Counted from the first letter of the stretch, positions 2,846 through 57,313 are shown. The stretch: 64,000 nucleotides of DNA from Selenomonadaceae bacterium (GCA_017535925.1 JAFXTD010000028.1:17229-81228); one strand, 5' to 3'. Numbers and translations: made by a program. Notes: generated by a model from the letters alone, not told the origin.

Positions 2846-2904
2846 ATTAGTGGTCAGTGATTGGCGATGAGAAAAAACTAATCCCTAATCACTAACCACT
2901 AATT
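2846..2904. repeat. tandem heptanucleotide repeat hairpin
   Basis: ATTAGTG GTCAGTG ATTGGCG .. loop GAAAAAA .. CTAATCC CTAATCA CTAACCA CTAAT. The arms are imperfect complements. Lies immediately 3' of rnpB. Confidence 0.8.
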
Positions 2905-2906
2905 TT

Positions 2907-3329
2907 GTCGACAGGCAGTCAATAAGCCGGATTCTGTTAGTGGCAATCATTTATCTTGCTTGAACGTTGCCGCTCAAGTTTAGCACCTTACCCGAGATGT
3001 CAGCGAGCAACCTCATCCATCTCCTATTTAGGCTTGCTCCGCGTGAGGTTTATCAGGCTTGCCGATTACTCGACAACCGGTAGGCTCTTACCCTGCCTTT
3101 TCATCCTTACCGTTCTATTAATTAGGAATTAGGAGTGAGGAATTAGTAATGAAATAACAATTCCTAATTCCTAATTCCACATTCCTAATTGTTAGAAAGG
3201 CGGTTTTCTTTTCTGTGACACTGTCTTTAAGATTACTCTCACCGGACGTTATCCGGCACGCTGCTCTGTGGAGTCCGGACTTTCCTCGTCGAATTGCTTC
3301 GCCGCGATTGCCTCTCCTGCCTGTCTACG
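2907..3329 (-). ncRNA. rnpB: RNase P RNA, bacterial type A
   Basis: The minus strand carries GAGGAAAGUCCGGACUCC (3270-3287) and ACAGAAUCCGGCUUAU (2922-2937). P1 pairing is GACAGGCAG/CUGCCUGUC. Also present: CAGUGUCACAGAAAAGAAAACCGCC and GGUAAGGAUGAAAAGGCAGGGUAAGAGCCUACC, as in type-A RNAs. Ends are approximate. Confidence 0.9.
3117..3191. repeat. heptanucleotide repeat hairpin occupying helix P12 of rnpB
   Basis: AATTAGG AATTAGG AGTGAGG AATTAG - loop - AATTCCT AATTCCT AATTCCA CATTCCT AATT, bracketed by the P11 strands (CCUUUCUA / UAGAACGG on the RNA strand). Confidence 0.8.
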
Positions 3330-3335
3330 TCAAAA

Positions 3336-3364
3336 ATTTTACCACTATAATTTTTTCGTGTCAA
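3336..3364 (-). promoter_or_regulatory. sigma70-type promoter of rnpB
   Basis: Minus strand TTGACA (3359-3364), 17-nt spacer, TAAAAT (3336-3341), about 7 nt before the predicted P1 5' end. Confidence 0.55.
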
Positions 3365-3422
3365 TCAGGTTTCTTCATAAAATATTCAGTTTTCTTTTCA
3401 AGCTCTTCAGCAAGGCTTGTGA

Positions 3423-4574
3423 CTATTTACGCGAACGCATCCAAGGCGGAATGTCAATTTCGACGCCGCCGGGCGGATTGTTCGTGTTGCCGAAGTCGGC
3501 ATTGAAAGTACCGAAAGGCGAACGAGGTTGTTCTTGAGGTCTGCGCGGTTGAGTTTGTTTTTCTTGGAAAGTCGGGCGAAGAGGCTCGCGTTCTCTGACG
3601 GGTTCTTCCTCTTCTTCCTCGTCGAAGCGCGTGGCAATGACCGTGACGCTGACTTTGTCGCCAAGAGATTCGTCGACGCTGACACCCCAAATAATTTCGG
3701 CGTCGGGGTGAGCTGCCTCTTGGACGGTTGTTGAAGCCTCGTTGACTTCCATCATTGAAAGCGAATCGGTCGCGCCCATGATGTTGAGCAGGACGCCGCG
3801 TGCGCCTTGCAAACTCGTCTCAAGCAACGGAGAATCAATCGCCGCTTTGACTGCGTCGACGGTTGCATTTTCGCCCGAAGCCTCGCCGATACCCATTAAA
3901 GCCGAGCCTGCATTGCTCATGATTGATTTGACATCCGCGAAGTCCAGATTGACCAGACCCGGCACCGCGATTAAATCCGAAATGCCTTTGACGCCTTGAC
4001 GCAAAATATCATCGGCGATTGTGAAAGCTTGCGTCATTGGAGTTTTCTTGTCGACGACTTGGAGCAAACGGTCGTTCGGAATTGTTATAATCGTGTCGAC
4101 GTTGCGCTTGAGGTTTTCGATTCCGATATCGGCATTTTTCTTGCGCTTGGGTCCTTCAAAGGTAAACGGACGAGTCACGACGCCGACAGTCAACGCGCCG
4201 ATTTCTCTTGCACATTCCGCAACAACCGGAGCCGCACCCGTGCCCGTGCCGCCGCCCATGCCCGCCGTGATAAACACCATGTCCGAGCCGCGCAGGGCGT
4301 TGATAATGTCTTCGCGACTTTCCATAGCCGCTTTCTGTCCGATTTCGGGACGAGCTCCCGCGCCCAAGCCTCGGGTAAGTTTCTCACCGATTTGCATTCG
4401 CTTTGGTGCCAACGCGGTTAAAAGTGCTTGAGCGTCGGTGTTCACGGCGATAAATTCCACGCCTTCCAAGCCCAAAGAAATCATTCGATTGACAGCATTA
4501 TTGCCGCCGCCGCCCACGCCGATTACTTTAATCTTCGCGAACTGGTCAAGAGTGTTGTCATCAAGTTCAATCAC
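3423..4574 (-). CDS. ftsZ: cell division GTPase FtsZ
   Basis: [17 protein letters not shown], tubulin signature [11 protein letters not shown], acidic/proline-rich C-terminal tail. Confidence 0.97.
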
Positions 4575-4724
4575 ATATCATTCCTCCACAAAATTTATTT
4601 AATCCGTCAAGGAAAATTTTTTCCGAACGCTTACCGGACATTGTACTATAAAAAAAAATTTTGTGAAAGACTTCGTGTCATAAAATTTTCAGCAAGCCGC
4701 CCGGTCAACGAGGGTTTCTTTTTT

Positions 4725-5534: not shown

Positions 5535-6515
5535 TTAGAGAAGATGTGCGCGAAGTTCTGCACCGTCTTGAGCCGAAAGATAAGCGGGCGCGATATCGAA
5601 GACCGTCTTGCAACCGTTGCTGCCTTCTTGGTTGAGGCGATAAGCGGCACGAGCATAGGCGACGAGGACAGCCGTCGTAAATTCGGGATTGGAGTCAAGC
5701 TTGAGATTAAATTCGATAATATGATTGTGTTCCTTAGTTTGACCGGTCTTGCCCGAACGAATCACGAAGCCTCCGTGAGCAAGTCCCGCGTGTTTGGTAA
5801 GGAGTTCTTCCTCGCTGATAAAGTTGACAACCGTATCGTAATCGGCGAAATAATTCGGCATGGTCTTAATCGCGTTTTCGACTTCGGCGGCGTCGGCACC
5901 TTCCTCAAGCACAACGTAGCATTCGCGCAAATGTTTTTGACGAGTCGTAAGTTCGGGATTCTGTCCGCTGCGAACTGCCTCAAGCGCACCGGCAATCGGC
6001 ACGGTGTACTGCTTTGCATTCTTGACGCCTTTGACGCGGCGAATCGCATCGGAGTGACCTTGACTGACGCCCTTGCCCCAGAAAGTGTAATCGTTGCCGT
6101 CGGGAAGAATTGCGTTTGCATAAGCGCGAGCCAAGCTGAACAGACCGGGATCCCAACCGACGGAGATAATCGCGACGTGCTTGTTTGCTTTAGCCGCCGC
6201 GTCGACTTTTGCAAAGTGTTCGGGAATTTTTGCGTGCGTGTCGAAGCTGTCGACGACGTTAAAGAGTTTTGCGAATTCGGGCGTTTGAGTCGGAAGGTCT
6301 GTTGCACTGCCGCCGCAAAGAATCATAACGTCAATCTTGCCGACCCAATCTTTTGCCTCATCCACATGAACGACGGGAACATTCGGCGTTTGAATTTTAA
6401 CTTTGGAGGGGTCACGACGAGTGAAGACCGCCACAAGTTGAGTATCGGGATTTTCTTTTATGGCGCATTCAACGCCGCGTCCGAGATTGCCGTATCCGAG
6501 TATTCCTATTTTCAT
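5535..6515 (-). CDS. ddh: meso-diaminopimelate D-dehydrogenase
   Basis: 326 aa. MKIGILGYGNLGRGVE N-terminus and overall similarity to Corynebacterium-type Ddh. Confidence 0.85.
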   Translation of the reverse strand: MKIGILGYGNLGRGVECAIKENPDTQLVAVFTRRDPSKVKIQTPNVPVVHVDEAKDWVGKIDVMILCGGSATDLPTQTPEFAKLFNVVDSFDTHAKIPEHFAKVDAAAKANKHVAIISVGWDPGLFSLARAYANAILPDGNDYTFWGKGVSQGHSDAIRRVKGVKNAKQYTVPIAGALEAVRSGQNPELTTRQKHLRECYVVLEEGADAAEVENAIKTMPNYFADYDTVVNFISEEELLTKHAGLAHGGFVIRSGKTGQTKEHNHIIEFNLKLDSNPEFTTAVLVAYARAAYRLNQEGSNGCKTVFDIAPAYLSAQDGAELRAHLL

Positions 6516-8331: not shown

Positions 8332-8492
8332 GGAGCATGTTGGTAAGTTTTCTTCTGCTTTTCTTTTGAAAGTTTTCTTCTACTTTTTCTTTGCCGGCAC
8401 CAAAGAAAAAGTAGCAAAAAGAAAGGTGCTTTAACCGGCTGTAAAAACATCCTGTTTTTAACGCCGGCGGCCGTCATCCGTGACGGCCGGGC
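8332..8492 (-). repeat. multi-hairpin MITE-like element, partial copy (right TIR present, left end missing)
   Basis: Reverse complement aligns to 54860-55032. All three hairpins are present (GGCCGTCACGGATGACGGCC, AAAAACAGGATGTTTTT, CTACTTTTTCTTTGG..CAAAGAAAAAGTAG), plus a TIR-like GGAGCATGTTGGTAAGTT at 8332-8349. Confidence 0.7.
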
Positions 8493-11039: not shown

Positions 11040-12266
11040 TTATGCTTGAGCACTCTCGACAAACCGCCAATGATAGCCGCCGGCTGTTCGATTAATTTCC
11101 TTGCAAGCTCGACGAATATGCGTATCTCTAATTTTGAGATAACGTGCCGCTTCATTTATCGACTCGTAAATTTTGTCGGTCTCAATGCAAATCACAGGTT
11201 TTTTCGTTGAATTCTTTTCGGAAAGTTTGGCTCTGTGTTCGTCACTCAAATGCCGCGCAGTCGTCGAAGAATTTTCTTCCGCTGTTTTGTCCGTATACTT
11301 CCAACGAAGACCGCCCGCCGTTTGAATAATTTTTTTGCAGGCTTTGGTTATGGAACTGCGGAGAATTTTATGAACACGTTCCGCTTCCGAAAGACTTTCG
11401 AAAATTTCACCCGTATCAATGCATGTAACGCGGCGAGATTTTGTCGTCTTGCCGTGAATTTTTTTTTCTGTATCGATTTTAACTTCCGTTGCTTCGTCGG
11501 GCTTATCGACAAACCGCCAATGATAGCCCGCCGCTGTCCGTTCGGGATTTTTGCAAGCATTTGAAATCCCCGTTCGATTTTTAAGATTATGAGCACGAGC
11601 TGCCGCTGTCAATGATTCAAATATTTCTTTTGTCTCAACGCAAATGACGGCTTGTTTATCTTTAGTTTCGGTGTCGTCTGCAAATTTCCAGTGAAAGCCG
11701 CCGGTAGTCTTGCGTTTATTTTGGCATACGCGATGAATACTTTGAAGACTGAGATTATTATGACGCGCCGCCTCCGTTACCGAATCATAAATTATTCCCG
11801 TTTCTATACATATCACTTTACGTTTATTCGGAATCACAGCAGATAAATGAGCTTTTTCTTCTTCCGTGAGCGGTCTGCCGGGTTTGCCTGTTAAACTTTG
11901 CGCGATAAGGTCTTTTGACTCGTTGCTGTGTTTCATACCGAAACGAGTCATTTTTGTGACGCTTTCGGGAGTTCGTTCCCAACCGCCTTCGCCGCCGTCA
12001 GTGTTATTGTAGCCGTTCGGCCAGCGGGTGCCGCGTGATTTAATGAAATGTCTTTCCCAACAGTTGAGCTCCTCTTGGCTTTCACAAACTTTCAAAATCG
12101 CCGTAGAAAAATTTTCTGCACCGTGTTTGCGAATCGCTCTGCCGATGTTCGACGTTTTGCAACGTTTGTGCTCTTTGAAGCGTTCCTCGACAGTTTGCGT
12201 CGTCTGCCCGACATATTCCTTGTCGTTTGTTCCGTCGATTAGCAGATAAATTACTCCGAATGCCAT
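11040..12266 (-). CDS. free-standing GIY-YIG homing-endonuclease-like protein with NUMOD3-like and four tandem HTH-like DNA-binding modules
   Basis: N-terminal GVIYLL...YVGQT...R..EH...E...N GIY-YIG core. NUMOD3-like KHSNESKDLIAQSLTGK / LSDEHRAKLSEK. Four ~50-aa repeats of the form V.CIETG.I[YF][ED]S..EAAR......I..ACK...[RK]TAGG[YF]HW[RK][FY]. Confidence 0.85.
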   Translation of the reverse strand: MAFGVIYLLIDGTNDKEYVGQTTQTVEERFKEHKRCKTSNIGRAIRKHGAENFSTAILKVCESQEELNCWERHFIKSRGTRWPNGYNNTDGGEGGWERTPESVTKMTRFGMKHSNESKDLIAQSLTGKPGRPLTEEEKAHLSAVIPNKRKVICIETGIIYDSVTEAARHNNLSLQSIHRVCQNKRKTTGGFHWKFADDTETKDKQAVICVETKEIFESLTAAARAHNLKNRTGISNACKNPERTAAGYHWRFVDKPDEATEVKIDTEKKIHGKTTKSRRVTCIDTGEIFESLSEAERVHKILRSSITKACKKIIQTAGGLRWKYTDKTAEENSSTTARHLSDEHRAKLSEKNSTKKPVICIETDKIYESINEAARYLKIRDTHIRRACKEINRTAGGYHWRFVESAQA

Positions 12267-12530: not shown

Positions 12531-12624
12531 GGAGTGGTACTCAAGCTTGGTGACGAGGCCTCACTGCTAATGAGGTAGGCTGCATAAAAGCGGCGCGGAG
12601 GTTCAAATCCTCTCCACTCCGCCA
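12531..12624 (+). tRNA. tRNA-Ser (anticodon GCT)
   Basis: Acceptor GGAGTGG/CCACTCC; anticodon stem CCTCA/TGAGG with loop CTGCTAA; long variable arm; T arm GGAGGTTCAAATCCTCT; encoded CCA. Confidence 0.93.
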
Positions 12625-13975: not shown

Positions 13976-14104
13976 GTGAGCGAAAACCCGGCCGCACAAT
14001 TTAGTGATTAGTGATTAGCTGTTAGCGGTTAGCTGTTAGAATTCTAATCACTGACCACTGACCACTTTAATTGGACAAGCAAAGAAAAAGTAGAAGAAAC
14101 TTTT
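13976..14104. repeat. chimeric repeat: MITE left fragment + heptamer array + MITE right fragment
   Basis: 13976-13998 GTGAGCGAAAACCCGGCCGCACA matches the element's left part. 14001-14066 is TTAGTGA x2, TTAGCTG, TTAGCGG, TTAGCTG, loop, CTAATCA CTGACCA CTGACCA. 14077-14104 GCAAAGAAAAAGTAGAAGAAACTTTT matches the 3' half of hairpin 3. Confidence 0.7.
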
Positions 14105-14156
14105 AAAGAGTTTTAATAAAGCTGTGATAAATTTTCGGCAAAGGAGAGTGATGGAG

Positions 14157-15299: not shown

Positions 15300-15322
15300 C
15301 GCCGACTTCGGCGTTTTTTTTT
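15300..15322 (+). terminator. rho-independent terminator
   Basis: CGCCG-ACTT-CGGCG followed by T9. Confidence 0.7.
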
Positions 15323-15325: not shown

Positions 15326-15402
15326 GTGACTTGGGACTGTCAGCTTTCAGCTACTGGAATTTTTTCTGACACCTTTAAAATCAATTTACCAACAGCTCTG
15401 GA
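15326..15402. repeat. MITE-derived fragment (heptamer-like TCAGCTT TCAGCTA block plus solo right TIR)
   Basis: TCAGCTTTCAGCTNNNGGAATTTTTTCTGACA recurs at 53540-53572. AATTTACCAACAGCTCT (15383-15399) matches the right TIR of 54824-55032. Confidence 0.6.
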
Positions 15403-18973: not shown

Positions 18974-19041
18974 AATGCGTAATGCGTAATGCGTAATCAA
19001 AACGTCTTCATTGCGCATTGCGCATTATTCATTCCGCATTG
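18974..19041. repeat. tandem heptanucleotide repeat hairpin
   Basis: (AATGCGT)x3 - loop - ATTGCGC ATTGCGC ATTATTC ATTCCGC. The arms pair with G-U wobbles on the + strand RNA. Sits between the rny stop and the next RBS. Confidence 0.8.
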
Positions 19042-20408: not shown

Positions 20409-20551
20409 GGAGCCGTCACGGACGACGGCTCCTCACGCCGCACTGAAACAGGATGTTTCTGCGGCGCGCCCCTGCGAGGTGCCCTTTCTTTTTGCTACTT
20501 TTTCTTTGGGCACGCAAAGAAAAAGTAGAAGACACTTGCAAAAGAAAAACC
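20409..20551 (+). repeat. multi-hairpin MITE-like element, internal copy without TIRs
   Basis: GGAGCCGTCACGGACGACGGCTCC, GAAACAGGATGTTTC, CTACTTTTTCTTTGGGCACGCAAAGAAAAAGTAG. Shares the CGAGGTGCCCTTTC variant with the 33186-33412 copy. Confidence 0.7.
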
Positions 20552-27840: not shown

Positions 27841-27928
27841 AATTCCCAATTTAGTGGTTAGTGATTAGTGGTTAGTGGTTAGAAAAACAATTCCCAATTC
27901 CCAATTCCCAATTCCTAATTCCTAATTC
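27841..27928. repeat. two adjacent non-complementary heptamer arrays
   Basis: TAGTGGT TAGTGAT TAGTGGT TAGTGGT, then AATTCCC x3 and AATTCCT x2. Confidence 0.8.
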
Positions 27929-35199: not shown

Positions 35200-35299
35200 C
35201 TAATCGCCTCGTTAAAATTTTTTTTATCATAGCAGAAAAATTTTTCGTTGCATAGCGGCTTGACTTCCTTTTTCGACGGTGTTTATATTTCGCGGGGTG

Positions 35300-38173
35300 A
35301 TGTTCATGCAGTTTCAATTTAAAAAGCAACTCTTCCAAGAGGAGGCGGCTGCTTCCGTCTGTGATTTGTTCATCGGGCAAGCATGTCAATCTCAATCGGG
35401 CGCGTTGAGTCTTATGCGGCTCGACGAATTTAATATCGGTTCCAATGCCGAAATTTCTCTTTCCGACGAAAAAATTTTGGAAAATCTGCGCGGCATTCAA
35501 GAGCGAAATAAATTGCCGCTGTCGAAAAATCTTGAGGGGAAAAATTTTTCTGTGGAAATGGAAACGGGCGTCGGCAAAACTTACACTTATATCAAGACAA
35601 TGTACGAGCTCAATCGCCGCTACGGTTGGAGCAAATTTATCGTCGTCGTGCCGAGTATCGCCGTTCGCGAGGGCGTCAAAAAAACTTTTGATATGACAGC
35701 CGAACATTTCAATTCCGTTTACGGAGAAAAAATCCGTCACTTCATTTACAATTCCAAAAATCTTTCCGTCATTAAAAGTTTCGTCAGCGATTCAAAAATT
35801 TGGGCGATGATTATCAACGTTCAAGCCTTCAGAGCGCGTTCGGATGATGCACGCCGCATGACGCAGGAGCTTGACGAATTCCAAAGCCAAATTCCAATCA
35901 AGGTTATCGCAAAAATAAATCCGATTATCATAATCGACGAGCCGCAATCGGTCGAAAGTGAATTGGCTTGCAAAAAAATTAAAGACTTCAATCCGCTGAT
36001 GATTTTGCGATATTCGGCGACGCTTAAAAATCCTTACAACCTCGTCATGCGCCTCGACGCACTCGACGCTTATCAACGCCGCCTCGTAAAAAAAATTTCC
36101 GTCAAAGGAATTGAAACTCGCAACGAAAATTTTTCCGGCTACATTTTTTTTGAAAGGCTCAATCTTTCAAGAGGCAACCCGACCGCCACGATGACTTTCA
36201 AGCGAAAAACGCCCGGCGGTGTCAAAAAAATTTCCCGCAAAGTTTCCGTCGGCGACGATTTGTTTATTTTATCGAACGGGCTTGAAGGCTATCGAAATTT
36301 CGTCGTGACAGAGATTGACGGCGTGAAAAGGTCTGTCGAATTTCTCAACGGCTTGGAAATTTTTATCGGTCAAGCGGTCGGTGACGTGAACGAAGAAGAA
36401 TTGAGACGCATTCAAATTCGCGAAACCATTCAATCTCATCTTGAGCACGAGGATCGGCTTTTCGGGCGCGGCATAAAAGTTTTGTCATTGTTTTTCATCG
36501 ACGAGGTCGCCAAGTATCGTCGCTACGAAGGAAACTTGCCGCTTGCCGGGATTTACGCCAAAATTTTTGAGGAAGAATACGCCGCCGCCGTTCAAAATTT
36601 CCATGCAGACAACGACTATAAAATTTATCTTGAATCAATCGCCGCGCAGGACACTCACGCCGGATATTTTTCCGTCGACAAAAAAAATCACGCCGTCGAT
36701 TCCAAAGAGGACGATGTTGACGCTTACGATTTGATTATGCGAGACAAAGAGCGGCTTTTGGATTTGAAGACGCCCGTCCGATTTATTTTTTCGCATTCGG
36801 CTTTGCGCGAGGGCTGGGACAATCCGAACGTCTTTCAAATTTGCACACTCAAGCACAGCTCAAGCGATATTCGTCGGAGGCAAGAGGTCGGGCGCGGCAT
36901 GAGGCTTTGTGTAAATCTTCACGGCGAACGCATGGACGAAGACAAACTCGGCGCGGATTTTCATGACGTGAATGTTTTGACCGTCATTGCCAACGAGAGC
37001 TATCAAACTTTCGCGGCGGGCTTGGAAAAAGAAATATCGGAGGCTGCCCGGCGCACGCCGGCTATCGACGAAAAATTTTTTGTCGGAAAAAAATTTTCGG
37101 GCATCAACGCTGACGAAAAATTTTCCCGAAAAATTTATAACGCCTTGATTCGCTGTAACTACCTTGACGACGAAGGAAACTTAACGGAAAAATTTTTCAA
37201 CGACAATTCTCAAGGCGCGATTGATTTGGGCGAGGAACTCAAGAATCACTGCGCGGCGATTGTAAAATTTCTTGACATTGATTTTAATATCGAAAACGCA
37301 CGCGACATTGACGTTGAAGCAAAGGCGGATGTCAAAAAACTTCACGACGAAAATTTTTTGAAACTTTGGGAGCAAGTCAATCGAAAAAGTTTCTACAGCG
37401 TCGAATTCGATTCGGAAGAGCTGATAAATCTTGCGGCGGACGCGCTCAACAAAAAGTTGCCCTCGTCGGAAAATTATTTCCTCGTTGAAAGCGGCACTCT
37501 CAATGACAAAGGCACCTTCGACAAGGAGCACAGTCGCAGGGAAAATTTTCAAGCGGCTGAAACTTTTTCGGAAACGGATTTAATCGCCGCTCTTGCCGAC
37601 GAAACTTCTTTGACGCGCAGAGACGTTGCCGAAATTTTGAAACGCCTCGAAATGCTCAAGCTTAACCATGAAAAATTTATTTTGAACTCGACAAAAATTA
37701 TTCGCGAAACCAAAGCCGACCGCCTCGCCGCGAACGTCACTTACACCGCCCTCGACGAACGCTTCAACATTAAAATTTTTAACGCGCCGCTGAAAGGTCG
37801 TTTCAACGTCAACGCCGCAGAGACCTCCAAAAATATTTACGATTACCTGATTTTCGATTCGACGATTGAAAAAAATTTCGCCGCCGAACTGGAGGCAGCC
37901 GACAGCGTTTCCGTCTATGTGAAGTTGCCGAAAAGTTTTTATATCCCGACGCCGTTCGGCAAGTACACTCCCGATTGGGCGATAGTACTTCGCGAAGGCT
38001 CTGTCAAAAATATTTATTTCGTCGTCGAAACGAAAGGCTCCACCGACGAAGGACAACTGCGCGGCGTCGAGGAAGGCAAAATTTTTTGCGCAGGGAAATT
38101 TTTTGACACAATCGGCGAAGGCAAGGTAAAATACCGCTTGGCAAAAACTTTTCAAGATATTTTGGAGGAGTGA
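35300..38173 (+). CDS. res: type III restriction enzyme, Res subunit
   Basis: MQFQFKKQLFQ N-terminus; Walker A METGVGKTYTY; IIIDEPQS box; helicase C motifs; C-terminal PD-(D/E)xK-like TPDW...VVETKG. The start could be 35300 or 35306. Confidence 0.92.
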   Translation: MFMQFQFKKQLFQEEAAASVCDLFIGQACQSQSGALSLMRLDEFNIGSNAEISLSDEKILENLRGIQERNKLPLSKNLEGKNFSVEMETGVGKTYTYIKTMYELNRRYGWSKFIVVVPSIAVREGVKKTFDMTAEHFNSVYGEKIRHFIYNSKNLSVIKSFVSDSKIWAMIINVQAFRARSDDARRMTQELDEFQSQIPIKVIAKINPIIIIDEPQSVESELACKKIKDFNPLMILRYSATLKNPYNLVMRLDALDAYQRRLVKKISVKGIETRNENFSGYIFFERLNLSRGNPTATMTFKRKTPGGVKKISRKVSVGDDLFILSNGLEGYRNFVVTEIDGVKRSVEFLNGLEIFIGQAVGDVNEEELRRIQIRETIQSHLEHEDRLFGRGIKVLSLFFIDEVAKYRRYEGNLPLAGIYAKIFEEEYAAAVQNFHADNDYKIYLESIAAQDTHAGYFSVDKKNHAVDSKEDDVDAYDLIMRDKERLLDLKTPVRFIFSHSALREGWDNPNVFQICTLKHSSSDIRRRQEVGRGMRLCVNLHGERMDEDKLGADFHDVNVLTVIANESYQTFAAGLEKEISEAARRTPAIDEKFFVGKKFSGINADEKFSRKIYNALIRCNYLDDEGNLTEKFFNDNSQGAIDLGEELKNHCAAIVKFLDIDFNIENARDIDVEAKADVKKLHDENFLKLWEQVNRKSFYSVEFDSEELINLAADALNKKLPSSENYFLVESGTLNDKGTFDKEHSRRENFQAAETFSETDLIAALADETSLTRRDVAEILKRLEMLKLNHEKFILNSTKIIRETKADRLAANVTYTALDERFNIKIFNAPLKGRFNVNAAETSKNIYDYLIFDSTIEKNFAAELEAADSVSVYVKLPKSFYIPTPFGKYTPDWAIVLREGSVKNIYFVVETKGSTDEGQLRGVEEGKIFCAGKFFDTIGEGKVKYRLAKTFQDILEE

Positions 38174-38179: not shown

Positions 38180-38947
38180 ATGAATTACAAGCTCTGGGAT
38201 TTTTTCAAAGAGTTGCAGACGAATTACGACTTGGTAGACTTGACTCACCCGCTCGACAACGACAGCCCTTATTGGTCGGGAATTCCCGAAGGCTCCGTTG
38301 AACTTTGCAAGACTTGTTTCGATTGGGGCAACCCGATGCTCGAATGCCTGATTCAAACTTTTAAATTCCCGGGACAATTCGGCACGCATATCGACTTCCC
38401 CGCTCACTTCATCAAGAATGCTCCGCGCAGTGAGGCTTACGGCGTGAGCAACATGATTTATCCTCTTTGCATCATTGACATTTCGGCGAAGGTTGCAGAG
38501 GATATTCACTACGCTGTGACGGCTGACGACATCAAGGCTTACGAAAAAATTTACGGCGCAATTCCCGACGGCGCGTTCGTTGCACTTTACAGCAATTGGG
38601 CTCGGCATTGGCCTGACATGAATAAAATTTCGGGTATCGCCGAAGACGGCAGCGAAAATTTCCCCGGCTGGTCTCTCGACGCGCTCAAATATATTTATGA
38701 AATTCGGAACGCCGCCGCAAACGGTCACGAGACACTTGATACCGATGCTTCCGCAGAGGCGTCTAAGGCAGGCGATTTGGCTTGCGAACGTTATATCCTC
38801 TCGAAAGGCAAACTCCAAGTCGAAGTCATGACGAATCTTGACAAGGTTGCTCCCGCCGGCGCAATTGTCTTTGTCGCTTGGCCGAACATCACAGGCGCAA
38901 CAGGTTTGCCCGCCAGAGTTTTGGCTATCACTCCAAAAAAATCATGA
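38180..38947 (+). CDS. putative-cyclase / kynurenine-formamidase-fold protein (PF04199-like) embedded in the R-M operon
   Basis: GQFGTHIDFPAHF metal-binding motif of the cyclase family. ATG lies 6 nt after the res stop (RBS GGAGGAG), and the stop overlaps the mod start (ATGA). Confidence 0.75.
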   Translation: MNYKLWDFFKELQTNYDLVDLTHPLDNDSPYWSGIPEGSVELCKTCFDWGNPMLECLIQTFKFPGQFGTHIDFPAHFIKNAPRSEAYGVSNMIYPLCIIDISAKVAEDIHYAVTADDIKAYEKIYGAIPDGAFVALYSNWARHWPDMNKISGIAEDGSENFPGWSLDALKYIYEIRNAAANGHETLDTDASAEASKAGDLACERYILSKGKLQVEVMTNLDKVAPAGAIVFVAWPNITGATGLPARVLAITPKKS

Positions 38948-40809
38948 ATAACATTGACAAGCTCGAAAAAATTTTTCCCGAATGCATTACCGAAGCCGAA
39001 GACTCCGAAGGCAATTTGATTCGCGCCGTCGATTTTGTTCGACTTAAACAAATTCTTTCGGATGAACTCCTCGAAGGGCGTGAGGCTTACGAATTTAATT
39101 TCGTCGGGAAGAAACGCGCCGCTCTTGAGGCTCACAAAAAAATTCGGAAGACGCTCCGCCCGCTTATCAATCAAAGCCGCAACTTCGACACGACTCAAAA
39201 TCTTTACATCGAAGGCGACAACCTCCAAGCTTTGAAAATTTTGGCGGAAAGTTATCTCGGCAAAGTCAAAATGATTTACATAGACCCGCCGTATAACGTA
39301 GGGGCGGACGCCATTTATCGCGACGACTTCACACAGGACTCCGATACTTTCGATGAGGAGGCTGCAGTCCGCGACGACGAGGGCAATCGCCTTTTCACCA
39401 ACAAGGAAAGCTGCGGGCGTTTCCATTCCGATTGGTGCGCCATGATTTATTCGAGGCTTTTAATCGCCAAACATTTTCTCTCTGACGACGGCGTCATTTT
39501 TATTTCTATCGACGACCACGAACAGGCGAACCTCAAAAAAATTTGTGACGAGGTCTTCGGCGAAAAAAATTTTGTCGCTTGTATTGCCGTGATAAATAAT
39601 TTCAAAGGACGGAGCGACGATAAATTTATCGCGACGGCTCATGAAAACTTGTTGATTTACCGTAAAGAAAACTTTAAGACAAACGGCGTGCCGATTCCCG
39701 ACGAATATCTTAAAGAATACACTTTGGAAGATGAACACGGCAAATATCGTTTGCAAGGCTTGAGGAAACGCGGCGCAAATTCAAAACGCGAAGACCGCCC
39801 AAACATGTTTTATCCTTTTTTTTATGATGAAGAGAGCGGCAAACTTTCCATTGACGAATTGCCCGCCTCGATAAAAATTTTGCCGTACCTTTCGGATGGC
39901 ACAGACGGTTGCTGGCGTTGGGGCAAAGACACTGCTCGCGAAAAAATTTCGGAGCTGACAGTTCAAAAAGTTAAAAGGCGCGGAGAATATGATGTATTTC
40001 AAAAAGATTATCTTCCAAGTGACGGTGTACGACGCGTTAAACCGAAATCTTTTTGGAGCGGCTCGGAATTTTCTGCAGAAGCAGGAACGTTGACGCTTAA
40101 GGCAATCATGGGCAAAGGAATTTTTTCGACGCCAAAATCATTGGGGCTTGTCAAATACATGTTGCAACAGGCGACGGACAAAGATTCAATCGTTATGGAT
40201 TTTTTCAGCGGCTCTGCGACGACGGCTCATGCAGTCATGGAACTCAACGCGGCGGACGGCGGGCAACGAAAATTTATCATGATACAAATTGCAGAGGCGA
40301 CGCCCAAAAATTCGGAGGCACACCGCGCCGGCTACGAGACCATTTGCGAAATCGGCAAGGAGCGAATACGTCGAGCGGGCGACAAATTAAAAGCCGCGCA
40401 TCCGAATTTGGACACGGGCTTCAGAGTTTTCAAAGTTGCCGATTCAAATTTCAAGCCGTTGCCGAAAGAGTGGACACCCCGGACAATTATGGACTTCGCG
40501 GAAAATATCAAAGCCGACCGCAACGCTTACGATTTATTTTTCGAGGCGTTGCTTGATACGGGCATGACACTTGATAAAAAATTCGCGGAAGAAGAAATCG
40601 ACGGCGTGAAAGTTTTGAGCTTCGACGGCGGAAAAATTTTGGCAAGCTTCGAAAAAAATATTTCGGCTTCGACGTTCAGGAAGTTGGCAAATCGCGGAGC
40701 GGAAAAAATTTTTTTCAGAGATGCCTCGTTTGCAAGTTCGTCTGACAAGATAAACGCTTTGGATTATTTTAAATACTTCGCGCCGGATACAAAAGTTAAA
40801 GTTTTATGA
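38944..40809 (+). CDS. mod: type III DNA methyltransferase, Mod subunit (beta-class N6/N4)
   Basis: Start at MNNIDKLEKIF. LYIEGDNLQALKIL; catalytic IYIDPPYN; later AdoMet motif FFSGSATTAHA. Confidence 0.92.
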   Translation: MNNIDKLEKIFPECITEAEDSEGNLIRAVDFVRLKQILSDELLEGREAYEFNFVGKKRAALEAHKKIRKTLRPLINQSRNFDTTQNLYIEGDNLQALKILAESYLGKVKMIYIDPPYNVGADAIYRDDFTQDSDTFDEEAAVRDDEGNRLFTNKESCGRFHSDWCAMIYSRLLIAKHFLSDDGVIFISIDDHEQANLKKICDEVFGEKNFVACIAVINNFKGRSDDKFIATAHENLLIYRKENFKTNGVPIPDEYLKEYTLEDEHGKYRLQGLRKRGANSKREDRPNMFYPFFYDEESGKLSIDELPASIKILPYLSDGTDGCWRWGKDTAREKISELTVQKVKRRGEYDVFQKDYLPSDGVRRVKPKSFWSGSEFSAEAGTLTLKAIMGKGIFSTPKSLGLVKYMLQQATDKDSIVMDFFSGSATTAHAVMELNAADGGQRKFIMIQIAEATPKNSEAHRAGYETICEIGKERIRRAGDKLKAAHPNLDTGFRVFKVADSNFKPLPKEWTPRTIMDFAENIKADRNAYDLFFEALLDTGMTLDKKFAEEEIDGVKVLSFDGGKILASFEKNISASTFRKLANRGAEKIFFRDASFASSSDKINALDYFKYFAPDTKVKVL

Positions 40810-41914: not shown

Positions 41915-42094
41915 GAAGTTTCCTCCGAAAATTTTTTGCTCGGCAAATTTTATCACAGTGTGAAAAAAAAATCTGCCCTCCGATTTTCCGTTGTAAAATC
42001 ATTCGCCGCGAAATTGACAAAAAATAAAAAATAGCTATAATGAACTTCAACGAAAAAAATTTCAACGCTGTTGTTATTCAAGGAGGCGATTCGC

Positions 42095-42475: not shown

Positions 42476-42507
42476 CCCGTCGTTCGGATTGAGCGGCGGG
42501 TTTTTTT
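42476..42507 (+). terminator. rho-independent terminator
   Basis: CCCGTCG...CGGCGGG stem followed by T7. Confidence 0.6.
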
Positions 42508-42584
42508 AGTGGTTAGCTGTTAGTGGTTAGCTGTTAGAAAAATATTTTCCCTAACCGCTAGCCACTAATCACTAACCACTAATC
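42507..42584. repeat. tandem heptanucleotide repeat hairpin
   Basis: TAGTGGT TAGCTGT TAGTGGT TAGCTGT - loop - CTAACCG CTAGCCA CTAATCA CTAACCA CTAATC. The last unit contains the efp stop codon. Confidence 0.8.
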
Positions 42585-43225: not shown

Positions 43226-43672
43226 TCACCAATGATACGGTTCGTGCCGATTGATTTTGAACGCCCGATAAATTTGTTCAAGCAGAATCAATCGCGTCAT
43301 TTGATGAGTGAAAGTCATTTCCGACAAAGATAATCGGAAGGACGCTGCCCGCCGAAGTTCCTCGCTCAAGCCGAACGCCCCTCCGATTGCAAATGTCAAG
43401 TTACTCACTCCGCTCAAATTCAGCACGGAAATTTTTTTTGCGAAGTCTTCCGAAGACAAAGCCTCGCCCGAAACGTCAAGCACGCAGAGCCAAGAATCTT
43501 TCGGGACAAGTGCCAAAAGTTTTTGTCCTTCCTCCTCGACGGTGCGGCATTCGGAAATTTCGCGGACTTCAATCGTTAAAAATTTTTTTAAGCGTTTAAG
43601 ATATTCCGCGACGCCTTCGACCAAAAATTTTTCTTTGAGCTTGCCGACGACAATCAAATTTATTCTAACCAC
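43226..43672 (-). CDS. rlmH: 23S rRNA (pseudouridine1915-N3)-methyltransferase RlmH
   Basis: SPOUT fold; IVVGKLKEKF...FAIGGAFG...THQMTRLILLEQIYRAF. The GTG start lies inside a heptamer unit. Confidence 0.9.
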   Translation of the reverse strand: MVRINLIVVGKLKEKFLVEGVAEYLKRLKKFLTIEVREISECRTVEEEGQKLLALVPKDSWLCVLDVSGEALSSEDFAKKISVLNLSGVSNLTFAIGGAFGLSEELRRAASFRLSLSEMTFTHQMTRLILLEQIYRAFKINRHEPYHW

Positions 43673-43723
43673 TAATCACTAACCACTAATCACTAACAGC
43701 TAACAGCTAACAGCTAATCACTG
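43665..43723. repeat. one-armed heptamer array filling the htrA-rlmH spacer
   Basis: CTAACCA CTAATCA CTAACCA CTAATCA CTAACAG x3 CTAATCA. No complementary arm. Confidence 0.85.
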
Positions 43724-45129: not shown

Positions 45130-45288
45130 TTAGGTCGTGTTGATGAATCTAAAAGCAACGGTGAGTGAAAGCCCGGCCGTCACGGACGACGGCCGCCGGC
45201 GTTAAAAACATGGATGTTTTTATAGCCGGACTAACGCCCTTTTCTTTTGCTACTTTTCTTTTGGGCGCAACAAAAGAAAAGTAGAAAG
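45130..45288 (+). repeat. multi-hairpin MITE-like element, copy with degenerate left TIR and truncated right end
   Basis: TTAGGTCGTGTTGATGAATCT (compare TTAGGGGCTGTTGGTAAATTC), GGCCGTCACGGACGACGGCC, AAAAACATGGATGTTTTT, CTACTTTTCTTTTGGGCGCAACAAAAGAAAAGTAG. Confidence 0.7.
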
Positions 45289-47400: not shown

Positions 47401-47623
47401 TAGGGGCTGTTGGTAAATTCGAAAAGCAGCGGGTAGCGAGTGCCCGGCCGCACACGGACGTGCGGCCGCCGCGACTTAAAACCTGGAAGGTTTTATAGCG
47501 GACAAACGCCCTTTTCTTTTGCTACTTTTCTTTTGGGCGTAGCAAAAGAAAAGTAGATTCAATAAACAAAATTCATTGCAACGTTCAATCGAAGCCGACT
47601 ATTTAATTTACCAACAACCCCTA
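47401..47623 (+). mobile_element. complete MITE-like element (19-bp TIRs, flanking GGTTAT duplication)
   Basis: Left TAGGGGCTGTTGGTAAATT versus the reverse complement of the right end, TAGGGGTTGTTGGTAAATT. GGTTAT at 47395-47400 and 47624-47629. Internal hairpins GGCCGCACACGGACGTGCGGCC, AAAACCTGGAAGGTTTT, CTACTTTTCTTTTGGGCGTAGCAAAAGAAAAGTAG. Confidence 0.75.
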
Positions 47624-47655
47624 GGTTATTAGAATTTTATTTCTTTACTACTAAC

Positions 47656-48183: not shown

Positions 48184-48246
48184 AAGGAACCGGGAACGAG
48201 GAACAAGTTTTTACAATTCCTAATTCCTCATTCCTAATTCCTAATT
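48184..48246. repeat. heptamer array
   Basis: AAGGAAC CGGGAAC GAGGAAC - loop - AATTCCT AATTCCT CATTCCT AATTCCT AATT. The right block is the reverse complement of 50167-50192 and of 54790-54823. Confidence 0.8.
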
Positions 48247-50166: not shown

Positions 50167-50218
50167 GGAATTAGGAATGAGGAATTGGGAATCGGGAAAA
50201 CGAATTTAATTCCTAATT
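50167..50218. repeat. heptamer array
   Basis: GGAATTA GGAATGA GGAATTG GGAATCG GGAAAAC .. TTCCTAATT. Confidence 0.8.
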
Positions 50219-50399: not shown

Positions 50400-50427
50400 T
50401 TGACAAGGAAAGTTTGCAAGTTATAAT
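50400..50427 (+). promoter_or_regulatory. consensus sigma70-type promoter of the GntR-family gene
   Basis: TTGACA (50400-50405), 16-nt spacer, TATAAT (50422-50427). Confidence 0.6.
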
Positions 50428-53536: not shown

Positions 53537-53596
53537 GTTCAGCTTTCAGCTGTAAGAATTTTTTCTAACAGCTAACCACTAACAGCTGACCGCTAA
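53537..53596. repeat. heptamer array / repeat shared with 15340-15372
   Basis: GTTCAGC TTTCAGC TGTAAG - AATTTTTT - CTAACAG CTAACCA CTAACAG CTGACCG CTAA. Confidence 0.75.
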
Positions 53597-54734: not shown

Positions 54735-54752
54735 AATTTGGCAAAAAAATCA

Positions 54753-54788
54753 GGGCTTGACTCCGAAAAAGAGTTAAGCCCGTTTTTT
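54753..54788 (+). terminator. rho-independent terminator
   Basis: 11-bp stem GGGCTTGACTC/GAGTTAAGCCC followed by T6. Confidence 0.8.
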
Positions 54789-54789
54789 C

Positions 54790-54823
54790 AATTAGGAATT
54801 AGGAATGAGGAATTAGGGGCTGT
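54790..54823. repeat. heptamer array interrupted by the MITE (continues at 55033-55045)
   Basis: AATTAGG AATTAGG AATGAGG AAT | element | GGAATGG GGAATG. Confidence 0.8.
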
Positions 54824-55032
54824 TGGTAAATTAAAAAGTAGCGGTTGGCGAGTGCCCGGCCGTCATGGATGACGGCCGCCGGCGATATGAACAGGATGTT
54901 CATCCGCCGGGTTAAGCACCTTTCTTTTTGCTACTTTTTCTTTGGTGCCGGCAAAGAAAAAGTAGATTCAATAAACAAAAGTTATTGAGACGCTTAATCG
55001 GTGCCGACGTTTTAATTTACCAACACGCTCTA
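54824..55032 (+). mobile_element. complete MITE-like element (19-bp TIRs, flanking GGAAT duplication)
   Basis: Left TAGGGGCTGTTGGTAAATT; the right end AATTTACCAACACGCTCTA matches in 16 of 19 positions as an inverted repeat. GGAAT at 54819-54823 and 55033-55037. Hairpins GGCCGTCATGGATGACGGCC, ATGAACAGGATGTTCAT, CTACTTTTTCTTTGGTGCCGGCAAAGAAAAAGTAG, TCAATAAACAAAAGTTATTGA. Confidence 0.75.
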
Positions 55033-55140
55033 GGAATGGGGAATGAAAAAATTTTTTCGTATCGTGTAACGAAATCGGATTTGAAACGTATAAGCTGCAG
55101 AAAACAAAATCACAATCAAAAGCAAAGGAGAATGATTAAC

Positions 55141-55365: not shown

Positions 55366-55386
55366 TTATCAAAAAACTTTTAAAAA

Positions 55387-55418
55387 AGCTCTTCGGCGCA
55401 TATCGGAGAGCTTTTTTT
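55387..55418 (+). terminator. rho-independent terminator
   Basis: 10-bp stem AGCTCTTCGG/TCGGAGAGCT (two G-U pairs) followed by T7. Confidence 0.7.
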
Positions 55419-55467
55419 AATTGGGAATTTGGAATTGGGAATGAAACCCCTGACCCCTGACCCCTAA
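55419..55467. repeat. heptamer arrays (two unit types, not complementary)
   Basis: AATTGGG AATTTGG AATTGGG AATGAAA, then CCCCTGA CCCCTGA CCCCTAA. Confidence 0.8.
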
Positions 55468-55537
55468 ATTTGACTTGCTTTATTTTTTCTTGTAAGGCGT
55501 GTTATAATTGCAAAAAAATTTTCTTGGAGTGATTCGG

Positions 55538-55900
55538 ATGTTCAGATTTGCGCACAACAACTTGAATGTGCTCGACTTGGAGCGCAGCAAGAAATTTTAT
55601 GCGGAGGCACTCGATTTGCACGAGGTCGGCGGGCTTGACGGCGGCGAAGATTTTAAAATCATTTATCTCGGCGATTCTTTCGGCAGTCATCACAAATTGG
55701 AGCTGACTTGGCTCAAAGAAAAGACGACGCCTTACGAATTGGGCGATAACGAAGTACATTTGGCGTTCACGACGAAAAATTTTGACGCGGCGCACGCCCG
55801 GCACGAGAAAATGGGTTGCATTTGCTACGAGAACAAAGAGATGGGAATTTATTTTATCGAAGACCCCGACGGCTATTGGCTTGAAGTTTTACCGGAGTGA
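55538..55900 (+). CDS. VOC-family protein / lactoylglutathione lyase-like
   Basis: Start at MFRFAHNNLNVLDLERSKKFY. Glyoxalase I-like pattern (HLAF, GYWLEV). Confidence 0.8.
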   Translation: MFRFAHNNLNVLDLERSKKFYAEALDLHEVGGLDGGEDFKIIYLGDSFGSHHKLELTWLKEKTTPYELGDNEVHLAFTTKNFDAAHARHEKMGCICYENKEMGIYFIEDPDGYWLEVLPE

Positions 55901-55905
55901 TTGTC

Positions 55906-57207
55906 ATGAAAAAAATTTTGGCAGCGACTTTGATTATCGGAAGTATGTTTTTCTCATCAATCGGAAACGCGGAAATAAAAACTTACACGGCGACGAGCGA
56001 GGAAGTTGCCGACAAATTCGAAGCTCAAGAGGTCGTCAAACTTCGCGCACGCGACAAGGCGATTAAAATTGCGTTGACGGAGGCGGGCAATTATCTCAAA
56101 AGCAATTCCGAATTGACCGACGATGAAATTTCCGCGATAACCTCCAACAGCTTTGAACTCGTCGGCTTGCCGCAATACAATCGCACGGACAAAAGCTCAA
56201 CTTGGTCGGCGACGGTTGAAATCAAAATCGACGACGCCGAAATTAAAAATTGGCTCAATCGCGACGAAAGAGACAAACATTCGCTGATTAATCAGACCAA
56301 AGACACGCAAAAACTTTTCGCGGCGAACGACCTTAGGCTTGAGGAATTTCGCACGCGCGCAAAAAATTCTTCCAAGCAGGAGCGCAATCAACTCAAGGCG
56401 GCTTTCGGCTACGTCGACAAAGAATTTCTTTCCAATCAAAAAGTTGCTGACGGCAATAAATTTTATTACAAGGGGCGTTTCGACGACGCGATAAAACTTT
56501 ACACGGAGGCTCTTGAGCTCAACGAGGACAATGTCGTCGCCTGCAACCTGCGCGGAAATATTTACGGTCTCTTCGCCATGAATCAGAAAAATATTCCGGT
56601 CGCCGAGAGCAATCGTCGACAGGCACTTGCCGACCTCGACAAAGCACTTCGACTCAATCCGAATTACGCCGACGCTTACGGCAATCGAGGCTTCGTCTAC
56701 TACGGCGCAAAAAATTTTTCGGCGGCGATAAAAGATTTTGACAAGGCGATTCAACTCAATCCGAACGACGCGCAGAATTATACTTATCGCGGGTTTTGCT
56801 ATCGGCAGACGGACGTTGCCAAAGCGGCAGCCGATTTCGACAAGGCGGTTGAACTTTTGCCGAACAATCCGAGCGTTTATTTCAATCGCGGCAATTTTTA
56901 CGAGCACGACGTGAAAGATTTTTCTAAGGCGGTTCAAGATTATTCGCGGGCGATTGACTTGACGACGCGTGAAGATTTGCTTGCCGTGAATTATCAAAAT
57001 CGAGGCGATGCCTATCGCAAGCTGAACATGTTCGGCAAGGCGATTGAGGATTACACGCGGGCTATTGAATTCATGGAAAAGCCGGCGCAAAAAAATCCTC
57101 TGTTGCCTTGGGTCTATCGCAGTCGCGGCGAATGTTATCGTTCACTCGGTGACGGCGCGAACGCTCAAGCAGATTTAAATAAGTTCGCAGAATTGCAACG
57201 CAGATAA
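55906..57207 (+). CDS. secreted TPR-repeat protein
   Basis: Signal peptide; ~130-aa N-domain; then at least 6 TPR units (..AI..Y..AL.L.P..A.AY..RG..Y..). Confidence 0.8.
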   Translation: MKKILAATLIIGSMFFSSIGNAEIKTYTATSEEVADKFEAQEVVKLRARDKAIKIALTEAGNYLKSNSELTDDEISAITSNSFELVGLPQYNRTDKSSTWSATVEIKIDDAEIKNWLNRDERDKHSLINQTKDTQKLFAANDLRLEEFRTRAKNSSKQERNQLKAAFGYVDKEFLSNQKVADGNKFYYKGRFDDAIKLYTEALELNEDNVVACNLRGNIYGLFAMNQKNIPVAESNRRQALADLDKALRLNPNYADAYGNRGFVYYGAKNFSAAIKDFDKAIQLNPNDAQNYTYRGFCYRQTDVAKAAADFDKAVELLPNNPSVYFNRGNFYEHDVKDFSKAVQDYSRAIDLTTREDLLAVNYQNRGDAYRKLNMFGKAIEDYTRAIEFMEKPAQKNPLLPWVYRSRGECYRSLGDGANAQADLNKFAELQRR

Positions 57208-57214
57208 TCAAAAA

Positions 57215-57313
57215 GGAGCCGCTTTGTCAATTGGGAATTGGGAATGGGGAATGGGGAATGGAAAAACAATTACTAATTCCTAATTCCTAATTCCTAATTG
57301 AATTTGCGGCTCC
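57215..57313. terminator. long composite hairpin: GC clamp GGAGCCGC/GCGGCTCC enclosing heptamer arms; probable bidirectional terminator
   Basis: CAATTGG GAATTGG GAATGGG GAATGGG GAATGG - loop - AATTACT AATTCCT x3 AATTG. Followed by T-runs, between convergent genes. Confidence 0.65.

Follow-up and report, generated by a model that had tools for sequence, protein, structure and literature searches.

Tandem heptanucleotide arrays resembling STRR sequences lie in and beside hairpins at gene ends and in the RNase P RNA gene of a Selenomonadaceae bacterium

The window analysed here, a stretch of 64,000 nucleotides from a Selenomonadaceae bacterium (GCA_017535925.1, JAFXTD010000028.1:17229-81228), is part of an 82.4-kb ENA metagenome contig and carries many arrays of tandem heptanucleotides, most of which are found at the ends of genes. 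An earlier note, made from the sequence alone, had likened these arrays to the sequences called STRR (short tandemly repeated repetitive) and had leaned towards a structural role at the RNA level. To our knowledge, heptamer repeats of this kind were first described in 1990, and that they are over-represented in bacteria was recognised in 2007. Judged by its RNase Y, which shows 92-94% identity to the proteins of "Quinella sp. 1Q7" and of uncultured ruminant Selenomonadales metagenome-assembled genomes, the host is a Quinella-like member of the Selenomonadaceae (Negativicutes, rumen) and not a cyanobacterium. Look-ups for exact matches to RNase Y and to the glyoxalase protein gave no result. 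The gene map was built from Pfam scans and from gene calls on the window contig and on the contigs of near-identical strains, i.e. assemblies from other samples with 98.9-100% identity to the window.

Tandem repeats were located with Tandem Repeats Finder and with a lag-p self-match scan of our own (periods 4-15, strict and relaxed cut-offs), for which 50 dinucleotide-preserving shuffles served as null model. Tandem Repeats Finder returned 47 rows for the window, 30 of them with period 7 or 14 and located where the arrays had been reported. With the strict cut-off the lag-p scan finds seven arms at period 7 and five at period 14, none at any other period between 4 and 15, and none at any period in the shuffles; when the cut-off is relaxed, the count rises to 19 arms at period 7, located at 14 loci, compared to at most one arm for each other period that is not a multiple of seven. 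Single arms hold 2.6-8.3 copies, and the enrichment is confined to period 7 and its multiple 14. The arrays are thus real, and 13 of the 15 segments listed in the earlier note are confirmed as periodic; the segment 15326-15376 is not periodic, and 55033-55045 holds two units only (GGAATGG GGAATG), too short for an array. The unit families, read directly from the sequence, agree with the previous description and comprise TTAGTGG, TTAGCTG, GGAATTA, AATGCGT, AATTGGG and CCCCTGA. In total the arrays amount to 824 nt, corresponding to 1.3% of the window or 11.7% of its non-coding DNA, and are found in 12 of the 42 spacers longer than 30 nt. Most of them are unchanged in independent assemblies from other samples and hence are not assembly artefacts. 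Neither are they restricted to the window, since the adjoining 6.6 kb of the contig hold three further array loci; the absence of enrichment elsewhere, which the earlier note had named as a ground for refutation, is thus not observed.

Two arrays are associated with the gene of the bacterial class A RNase P RNA, rnpB, which lies on the minus strand at 2907-3324 (Rfam RF00010, 284 bits, full length). The GGAATTA/TAATTCC hairpin array at 3117-3191 is located inside this gene, a placement that had previously been overlooked. In the cmscan alignment it appears as some 70 inserted nucleotides between positions 136 and 137 of the model, at the apex of helix P12, and in the RNA sense, i.e. on the minus strand, it extends P12 (-36.4 kcal/mol, z -5.7). 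An FtsZ-based metagenome scan yielded 80 loci, of which only one, L084 from a rumen metagenome (FtsZ 88% identity), contains an rnpB homologue; the other locus with FtsZ identity above 85%, L083, has none. The rnpB of L084 is nearly identical to that of the window outside P12, and at the apex of P12 it has another array, AATGCGT AGTGCGT AATGCGT AATG, which pairs with itself by means of G-U pairs (-21.1 kcal/mol, z -4.5). Hence P12 is lengthened by arrays of unrelated units in two close relatives. The second array, a hairpin of the TTAGTGG family at 2846-2904 (ATTAGTGG TCAGTGA ... / ... CTAATCA CTAACCA), starts 2 nt past the 3' end of rnpB and on the minus strand is followed by TTTTGTT; its minus-strand RNA folds with -39.5 kcal/mol (z -9.9). 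L084 has an ordinary 13-bp hairpin at this position.

The other arrays, most of them hairpins, are distributed over the rest of the window. At 14001-14066, between two plus-strand genes encoding an aminotransferase and an LPP20-like protein, TTAGTGA/TTAGCTG units face CACTGAC units across a GAATTC centre. The (AATGCGT)n/(ATTGCGC)n hairpin at 18974-19041 (plus strand) begins 13 nt past the rny stop codon and is followed by TTTTT; its plus-strand fold (-31.4 kcal/mol, z -5.9) is closed by G-U pairs. TTAGTGG/TTAGCTG and CTAACCA/CTAATCA units make up the array at 42507-42584 (z -12.2 and -10.5 on the two strands), which begins at the T-run of a terminator (42476-42500), overlaps the efp stop codon by 2 nt and is unchanged in two other strains. 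A degenerate GGAAC arm and a TAATTCC arm are combined at 48184-48246 (z -4.5 and -7.0), in the spacer between a PTS gene and a cupin gene, both on the minus strand. The array at 50167-50218, of the GGAATTA family with a short TAATTCC arm, lies between divergent PTS (minus strand) and GntR (plus strand) genes, upstream of the former. At 53537-53596, between PFK and HAD genes that are both on the plus strand, GTTCAGC/TTTCAGC units are opposed by CTAACAG/CTAACCA units (z -3.6 and -4.5). Finally, the (AATTGGG/AATGGGG)n/(TAATTCC)n hairpin at 57228-57300 is enclosed by a GC stem, so that the whole element spans 57215-57313: GGAGCCGC (57215-57222) pairs with GCGGCTCC (57306-57313), the stem is preceded by an A-run and followed by a T-run, and the fold including the flanks (-55.0 kcal/mol) closes this outer stem. 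The stem looks like a bidirectional terminator that carries the array in its loop.

Four further arrays depart from the hairpin form. The array at 27841-27928 joins (TTAGTGG)4.6 through AAAAA to (CAATTCC)5.9, i.e. arms from different, non-complementary families; it lies between the terminators of a convergent flagellin gene and an open reading frame (ORF) of 1588 aa and forms no hairpin (z -0.1 and -1.3). At 55419-55467, directly 3' of a terminator T-run, (AATTGGG)3 is separated by a short centre from (CCCCTGA)3, and the weakly complementary arms fold weakly (z -0.8 and -2.3). Two loci consist of a single arm, in both cases G-rich on the sense strand: the array at 43665-43723 (minus strand) in the htrA-rlmH spacer, which overlaps the htrA stop codon, and (AATTAGG)4 at 54790-54823 (plus strand), which begins 1-2 nt past the T-run of the terminator at 54753-54781. 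The degenerate segment at 15326-15376, 3' of a canonical terminator (15300-15313), lacks a period-7 signal and folds no better than shuffles (z -0.9 and -0.1); by eye it resembles, in decayed form, what stands in the centre of the hairpin at 53537 (GTCAGCTTTCAGCT..GGAATTTTTTCTGAC).

With respect to genes, 11 of the 12 intergenic arrays follow a gene end at a distance of no more than about 120 nt, three between convergent and eight between co-directional genes. The statement of the earlier note that the arrays mark gene ends thus stands for all intergenic arrays with the exception of 50167, the only one that is not at a gene 3' end. As had also been stated, none lies inside a protein-coding sequence, the overlap being limited to a few bases at stop or start codons (e.g. 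the stop codons at 42507 and 43665), and ordinary terminators adjoin the arrays. Six arrays or remnants are found directly 3' of the T-run of a canonical terminator (15326, 27841, 42507, 54790, 55419 and, less clearly, 53537) and therefore may be largely untranscribed. A consensus terminator scan flagged these neighbouring canonical terminators and none of the arrays, apart from a weak 5-bp match inside 18974. Array stems measure 20-35 bp and are A/T-rich, unlike the short GC-rich stem of an intrinsic terminator, with its small loop and U-tract; those at 2846 and 18974 are followed by a T-run. The arrays sit in or beside pre-existing hairpins, both P12 and terminators, and in a set of unrelated array-rich contigs they occur on both sides of a canonical terminator. 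Upstream of the G-rich arms no insertion-site motif was detected, only a weak trend towards A/T-rich sequence beside the array and GC-rich sequence 10-14 nt away. In the part of the contig just beyond the window (L170, 14636-14745), an array is situated immediately upstream of the trkA start codon and, from the sequence, appears to supply the only Shine-Dalgarno-like sequence of this gene, GGGAATGAGGAATTGGAAATG on the strand of the gene (GGAATGAGGAA).

The architecture proposed in the earlier note, n units, an A/T-rich loop and n units of the complementary type, applies to most loci, as nine of the 14 fold far better than shuffles on both strands (z -3.3 to -12.2). It is, however, not constant: the other five comprise three two-arm loci with non-complementary arms and the two single-arm loci. 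What does not change is arm order: in the 5'-3' direction of either strand, a G-rich arm is followed by an A/T-rich centre and then by a C-rich arm. When adjacent arms with a gap of at most 30 nt are counted, G-then-C and C-then-G pairs are found in a ratio of 6:0 in the window contig, 2:0 in its relatives and 47:0 in unrelated array-bearing contigs, i.e. 55:0 in total, non-complementary pairs included. Since five loci have non-complementary arms or a single arm, the constant feature is this arm order and not complementarity or hairpin formation. Single arms between co-directional ORFs are preferentially G-rich on the sense strand (78 versus 35 in unrelated contigs, 5 versus 0 here).

It had also been argued that hairpins which close with G-U pairs on one strand only point to structure at the RNA level. 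As a general argument this is weak, because the G-rich arms differ mainly by A/G exchanges; where one strand thereby obtains G-U pairs, the other has A-C mismatches, so that the strand asymmetry simply follows these A/G differences. In five of seven testable loci the sense strand of the upstream gene is the one that folds more stably, which is not significant, and the asymmetry in fold energy was rejected as a sign of RNA selection. Variant units, as read from sequence and folds, are not mirrored between the two arms of a hairpin.

Three other candidate explanations were discarded. A G-quadruplex can be dismissed for most arrays, which have no runs of three G: four or more runs of at least three G occur only in the left arm of 57228, and the TTAGTGG and GGAATTA families contain GG only. 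A role of the G-rich units as Shine-Dalgarno-like sites, pairing with the 3' end of 16S rRNA, would suit GGAATTA (AGGA) and not TTAGTGG, and hence is not general. CRISPR arrays, in which repeats of 23-50 nt alternate with unique spacers of similar length, are ruled out by units that are 7 nt long and contiguous, without spacers. Chi-like sequences that point to the hairpin centre and primase initiation triplets (CTA/TTA in every unit) are two further, purely speculative ideas.

To compare the number of units between strains, as had been suggested earlier, we used the near-identical assemblies, and found changes in steps of 7 nt at three arrays. Array 43665 is 14 nt (two units) shorter in strain L164, whereas in strain L168 array 50167 is 21 nt longer (three units, in the C-rich arm) and array 57228 is 7 nt shorter. 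These strains show 98.9-99.1% identity to the window, and in the rest of the aligned DNA there is a single indel of at least 2 nt (+9 nt), outside the arrays. The array upstream of trkA is a plain C-rich array in one strain and contains 68 extra nucleotides in two others, namely GGT, (TTAGTGG)5.5, AAACT and (AGTTCCY)3, the same composite architecture as at 27841. Between species, orthologous spacers were sought in relatives L003-L015, both for six control spacers and for three arrays (14001, 15326, 27841). Since synteny breaks down outside the vicinity of rny, the regions that can be compared are the rny spacer and two array-free control spacers. Between the rny stop codon and the next gene, the window, L003 and L005 have AATGCGT hairpins with differing copy number, L004 has an AAGGGAC hairpin and L010 a GGAATTA hairpin; L007 and L008 have ordinary terminators there, and L006 and L009 have nothing. 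From the strain alleles and the differences in the rny spacer it follows that turnover is fast in both the number and the identity of units.

Applied to other genomes, the relaxed scan detects seven arms of period 7 in loci from the Quinella clade (L003-L010, 122 kb), none in 101 kb of other Selenomonadaceae (L011-L017) and 12 in 1.08 Mb of other Firmicutes, where period 7 does not exceed the background given by periods 6 and 9. The excess of period 7 is specific to the Quinella clade. In the locus L064 (Peptococcaceae bacterium BRH_c4a, 13.7 kb), 13 period-7 rows of Tandem Repeats Finder fall on eight places. Their units (ATTCTGG, CTGAGTT, GACGACT) differ from those of the window, and this may be either a further Firmicute rich in heptamers or a repeat in coding sequence.

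The units of the window are also found elsewhere. IMG/VR was scanned with exact triple units, using composition-matched permuted units as controls. The natural units (AATTAGG)x3 and TTAGTGG TTAGTGR TTAGTGG gave 51 and 58 stretches, respectively, compared to four for the permutation (ATGATAG)x3 and 11 for (TGTTGAG)x3. The contigs with natural units range from 27% to 70% GC and share nothing with the window except the arrays. One of them, the unrelated contig L266, contains a hairpin that is 82% identical to the entire 66 nt of 14001-14066. Within the window, the P12 array and the array in the terminator loop at 57228 are 80% identical in register over 82 nt, centre and flanks included (D20). 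Two array-rich IMG/VR contigs compared by megablast with GenBank phages gave no match.

A further IMG/VR contig, IMGVR_UViG_3300010049_000053 (L272, 37% GC), filed as viral and unrelated to the window, contains a complete bacterial RNase P RNA gene at 5886-6232 (264 bits), the terminal T-run of which is continued without a gap by a TTAGTGR array. Probably the contig represents a piece of a chromosome or the flank of a prophage from an organism with 37% GC.

Taken together, we regard it as rather probable that the arrays are slippage-prone simple-sequence repeats of the STRR type, which are tolerated in hairpin loops, at terminator flanks and in short spacers, are mostly neutral or selfish and have occasionally been co-opted. 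Arm lengths would change by replication slippage or misaligned repair, and most copies would be neutral or selfish passengers and not designed signals. They would persist where an added stem-loop does little harm, i.e. just past or within intrinsic terminators, in short spacers and at the P12 apex. A few copies may have been put to use: the hairpins after rnpB and rny, which lead into T-runs and take the position held by ordinary terminators in relatives, and, as the alignment suggests, the array upstream of trkA as a source of a Shine-Dalgarno sequence. The fixed order of the arms may result from selection against exposing a long C-rich, G-poor stretch of RNA, a loading site for Rho, before its partner arm has been made, which would cover both the sense-strand bias and the arm order; alternatively, it may be the footprint of the mechanism that generates the arrays.

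Several points weigh against this interpretation. The genome-wide picture is extrapolated from about 71 kb of genome, neutrality is inferred from polymorphism, and avoidance of Rho is hypothetical. Passive slippage does not explain an absolute arm order. In addition, TTAGTGG and AATTAGG recur at many loci and in unrelated contigs, in the latter 5-13 times as often as composition-matched permuted units, and the centre and flank sequences shared by some loci look like the outcome of copying between sites. Independent local slippage alone does not account for this sharing of units together with the likeness of centres and flanks, which suggests either copying or a generating process with sequence preferences.

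The explanation towards which the earlier note inclined is that the arrays are functional RNA elements, long 3' stem-loops that act as terminators, attenuators or stabilisers of the upstream mRNA and are under selection at the RNA level. In line with this explanation are the folding of nine of the 14 loci, the hairpins with T-runs after rnpB and rny at the position of the relatives' ordinary terminators, the dependence of some helices on G-U pairs, e.g. (AAUGCGU)n in P12 of L084, and the preference of single arms for G on the sense strand. However, six arrays do not start until a canonical terminator with its T-run is complete, so that they bring no obvious gain in termination, arms are non-complementary at three two-arm loci and single at two others, variant units are not mirrored between arms, and the stable strand is the sense strand in five of seven loci only. 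Arrays that differ in presence or length between strains of about 99% identity, and that consist of unrelated units in sister species, are likewise difficult to reconcile with such a role, which we thus consider unlikely for the arrays in general.

Quite unlikely, in our estimate, is an origin as non-autonomous mobile hairpins, similar to miniature inverted-repeat transposable elements (MITEs) or to REPINs, which an enzyme encoded elsewhere would copy into hairpin loops and terminators and which would then drift by slippage. This would account for the 80% identity in register over 82 nt between the P12 and terminator-loop arrays, for the resemblance of segment 15326 to the centre of 53537, for the composite [AATTCC]-[TTAGTGG]n-A-run-[AATTCC]n that is found twice, for the presence or absence of 68 nt between strains, for the 66-nt hairpin that recurs with 82% identity in an unrelated contig and for unrelated units at the same site in sister species. 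Against it, the arrays have neither conserved termini nor target-site duplications, their lengths and units vary continuously, and no transposase gene or gene of the REP-associated tyrosine transposase (RAYT) type is present among the genes called for most of the contig. Moreover, the 68-nt difference could equally be a deletion between flanking direct repeats, and some likeness is unavoidable among loci that are built from the same few heptamers.

An active, directional synthesis would add G-rich heptamers to the 3' ends at breaks in hairpins or terminators, in the manner of a telomere or by a reiterative polymerase, and the ends would subsequently be joined head to head. The arm order of 55:0 would be a direct consequence, and so would non-complementary families joined in the same order, arms of unequal length, single arms, G-rich arms that often begin right past a T-run and the same units in unrelated genomes. 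Yet no candidate enzyme has been identified and no junction signature demonstrated, selection at the RNA level can also explain the arm order, and the proposal is drawn from the pattern only, so that we judge it very improbable. Chance or an assembly artefact has nothing in its favor and is refuted, given that the shuffles contain no arrays and that independent assemblies contain identical ones.

Several consequences follow from these data. The rumen Negativicute is a new host at the level of the phylum, in which the cyanobacterial pattern of differing P12 arrays in close relatives is reproduced. Any mechanism has to comply with three rules, i.e. the G-rich arm comes first, arrays tend to adjoin terminators or to be nested in them, and a restricted set of units is used across unrelated genomes. 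Near-identical strains with differing alleles are available in public rumen metagenomes (L164-L172 come from ERZ28653718, ERZ28654296, ERZ27256870 and SRR12529273), which makes rates of slippage and insertion events directly measurable. On the practical side, such arrays break assemblies and can pass for terminators or regulatory RNAs. A bolder proposal, which we hold to be distinctly improbable, is that cyanobacteria, Xanthomonas, Beggiatoaceae, Quinella and many uncultured genomes (27-70% GC) have in common a conserved directional process that lays G-rich heptamers of a restricted family 5' to 3' from both sides of a lesion in a hairpin or terminator. If true, it would account at once for the 55:0 order, the non-complementary pairs, the onset past T-runs and the repeated independent invasion of P12.

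Besides the heptamer arrays, the window contains a second dispersed intergenic repeat that is not heptameric, a hairpin (CTACTTTTTCTTTG ... CAAAGAAAAAGTAG) that belongs to an element measuring some 60-115 nt (D3/D4/D5/D10). Copies are found at 8374-8414, 20472-20530, 33240-33280, 45227-45285, 47499-47625 and 54908-55034, and a half copy at 14066-14107 abuts the heptamer array 14001-14066; the two GGAATGG-type units at 55033-55045 stand at the end of the D10 copy. In the spacer after 20399 this repeat is present in the relative L004 and not in L003, and at the gathering threshold it matches no Rfam family.

Among the genes of the window, a 408-aa ORF at 11040-12266 (minus strand), next to tRNA-Ser (12531-12624), combines a GIY-YIG domain with I-TevI/NUMOD DNA-binding domains and from this domain content looks like a free-standing homing endonuclease. 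It has internal direct repeats of about 53 nt (D15) and is present in the window contig and in strain L172, and no gene is called there in strain L171, which is about 99% identical. The 1588-aa ORF convergent with the flagellin gene (28026-32792, minus strand) has no Pfam match, and the approximately 4 kb around it differ in composition (GC 0.54 versus about 0.48, AT skew -0.18). At 35279-38173 (plus strand) a ResIII helicase with a restriction-endonuclease domain is encoded near a gene at 38878-40809 (plus strand), over much of which gene calls of other strains place an N6/N4 DNA methyltransferase on the opposite strand; by these domains the two genes look like a restriction-modification system. 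Two perfect matches (12/12) to the sigma-70 consensus (TTGACA, 16 nt, TATAAT) occur at 42014-42041 and 50400-50427 (plus strand), the latter just downstream of array 50167-50218 and in front of the GntR gene.

Compared to known repeats, the arrays are closest in kind to the STRR sequences, which Mazel et al. reportedly described in heterocyst-forming cyanobacteria in 1990. The label "STRR-like" fits, since the units are 7 nt long and tandem, are of several types, are dispersed over non-coding loci (14 in 64 kb and three in the next 6.6 kb) and vary in 7-nt steps between strains. The location in P12 is shared as well: the title of a paper by Vioque (1997, Nucleic Acids Res 25:3471) names this situation for heterocystous cyanobacteria, and its abstract reportedly describes unrelated STRRs in P12 of closely related strains, dispensable for catalysis. 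STRRs in the strict, cyanobacterial sense they are not, as the host is a Negativicute and the units are only similar to the cyanobacterial STRR1-3 sequences; the cyanobacterial CCCCAGT and CAACAGT resemble CCCCTGA and CTAACAG here. Unlike in cyanobacteria, most loci here consist of two convergent arms that form hairpins.

The repetitive extragenic palindromic (REP) sequences of Enterobacteria and Pseudomonas, with the related BIME and REPIN elements, are intergenic hairpins, often in inverted pairs, at gene 3' ends near terminators, and some stabilise mRNA. The arrays share with them the hairpin-forming, paired inverted arrangement at gene 3' ends beside terminators. REPs are imperfect palindromes of 20-40 nt with a fixed sequence and a linked RAYT transposase, whereas the Quinella arrays have an internal periodicity of 7 nt and variable units.

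The over-representation of long heptamer simple-sequence repeats and the proposal of polymerase slippage are attributed to Mrazek et al. (2007) in two later papers (PMC4692102, PMC4679880). One of these, Rehm et al. (2015), describes repeats of the unit GGGAATC in Xanthomonas and of GGGGA(C/T)T in Nostoc PCC 7120 (PMC4692102). The Xanthomonas repeats are 89-93% intergenic, on average 28 nt past the upstream ORF; 70-75 pairs are in convergent orientation on opposite strands, repeats between divergent genes are rare, repeat length differs between Xcc and Xac, and no function was found (PMC4692102). A nearly identical unit (GGGAATT/AGGAATT here), convergent pairs, a position 3' of ORFs and length variation are common to both systems. 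Differences concern the GC content and phylum of the host and the nesting in P12 or in terminator loops, which is not described there (PMC4692102). Rehm et al. furthermore stress G-quadruplex potential, based on four runs of three G (PMC4692102), while most Quinella arrays have GG only and cannot form quadruplexes.

In the other paper, MacGregor (2015) reports TAACTGA repeats with a patchy distribution in marine Beggiatoaceae, some cyanobacteria and Bacteroidetes, with indels in 7-nt increments between Cyanothece strains, mixed heptamer types within a spacer and related species that lack arrays at the same spacer (PMC4679880). Likewise, the present arrays are intergenic and patchy, mix their units, show 7-nt indels and include TAACTGA-like units (CTGACCA, CTAACAG). 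Most arrays of the Beggiatoaceae genome share one orientation and directly precede start codons, and a role in the regulation of translation was proposed for them (PMC4679880), whereas here they lie mostly downstream of gene ends and are paired.

We found no report of heptamer arrays in Negativicutes, and the paper on the Quinella genomes is silent on repeats. In conclusion, the kind of repeat is already known. New are the P12 parallel in a second phylum, the nesting of arrays in terminator loops, the strain-resolved alleles that differ by steps of 7 nt and the 55:0 rule of arm order, which extends to pairs of arms that are not complementary.

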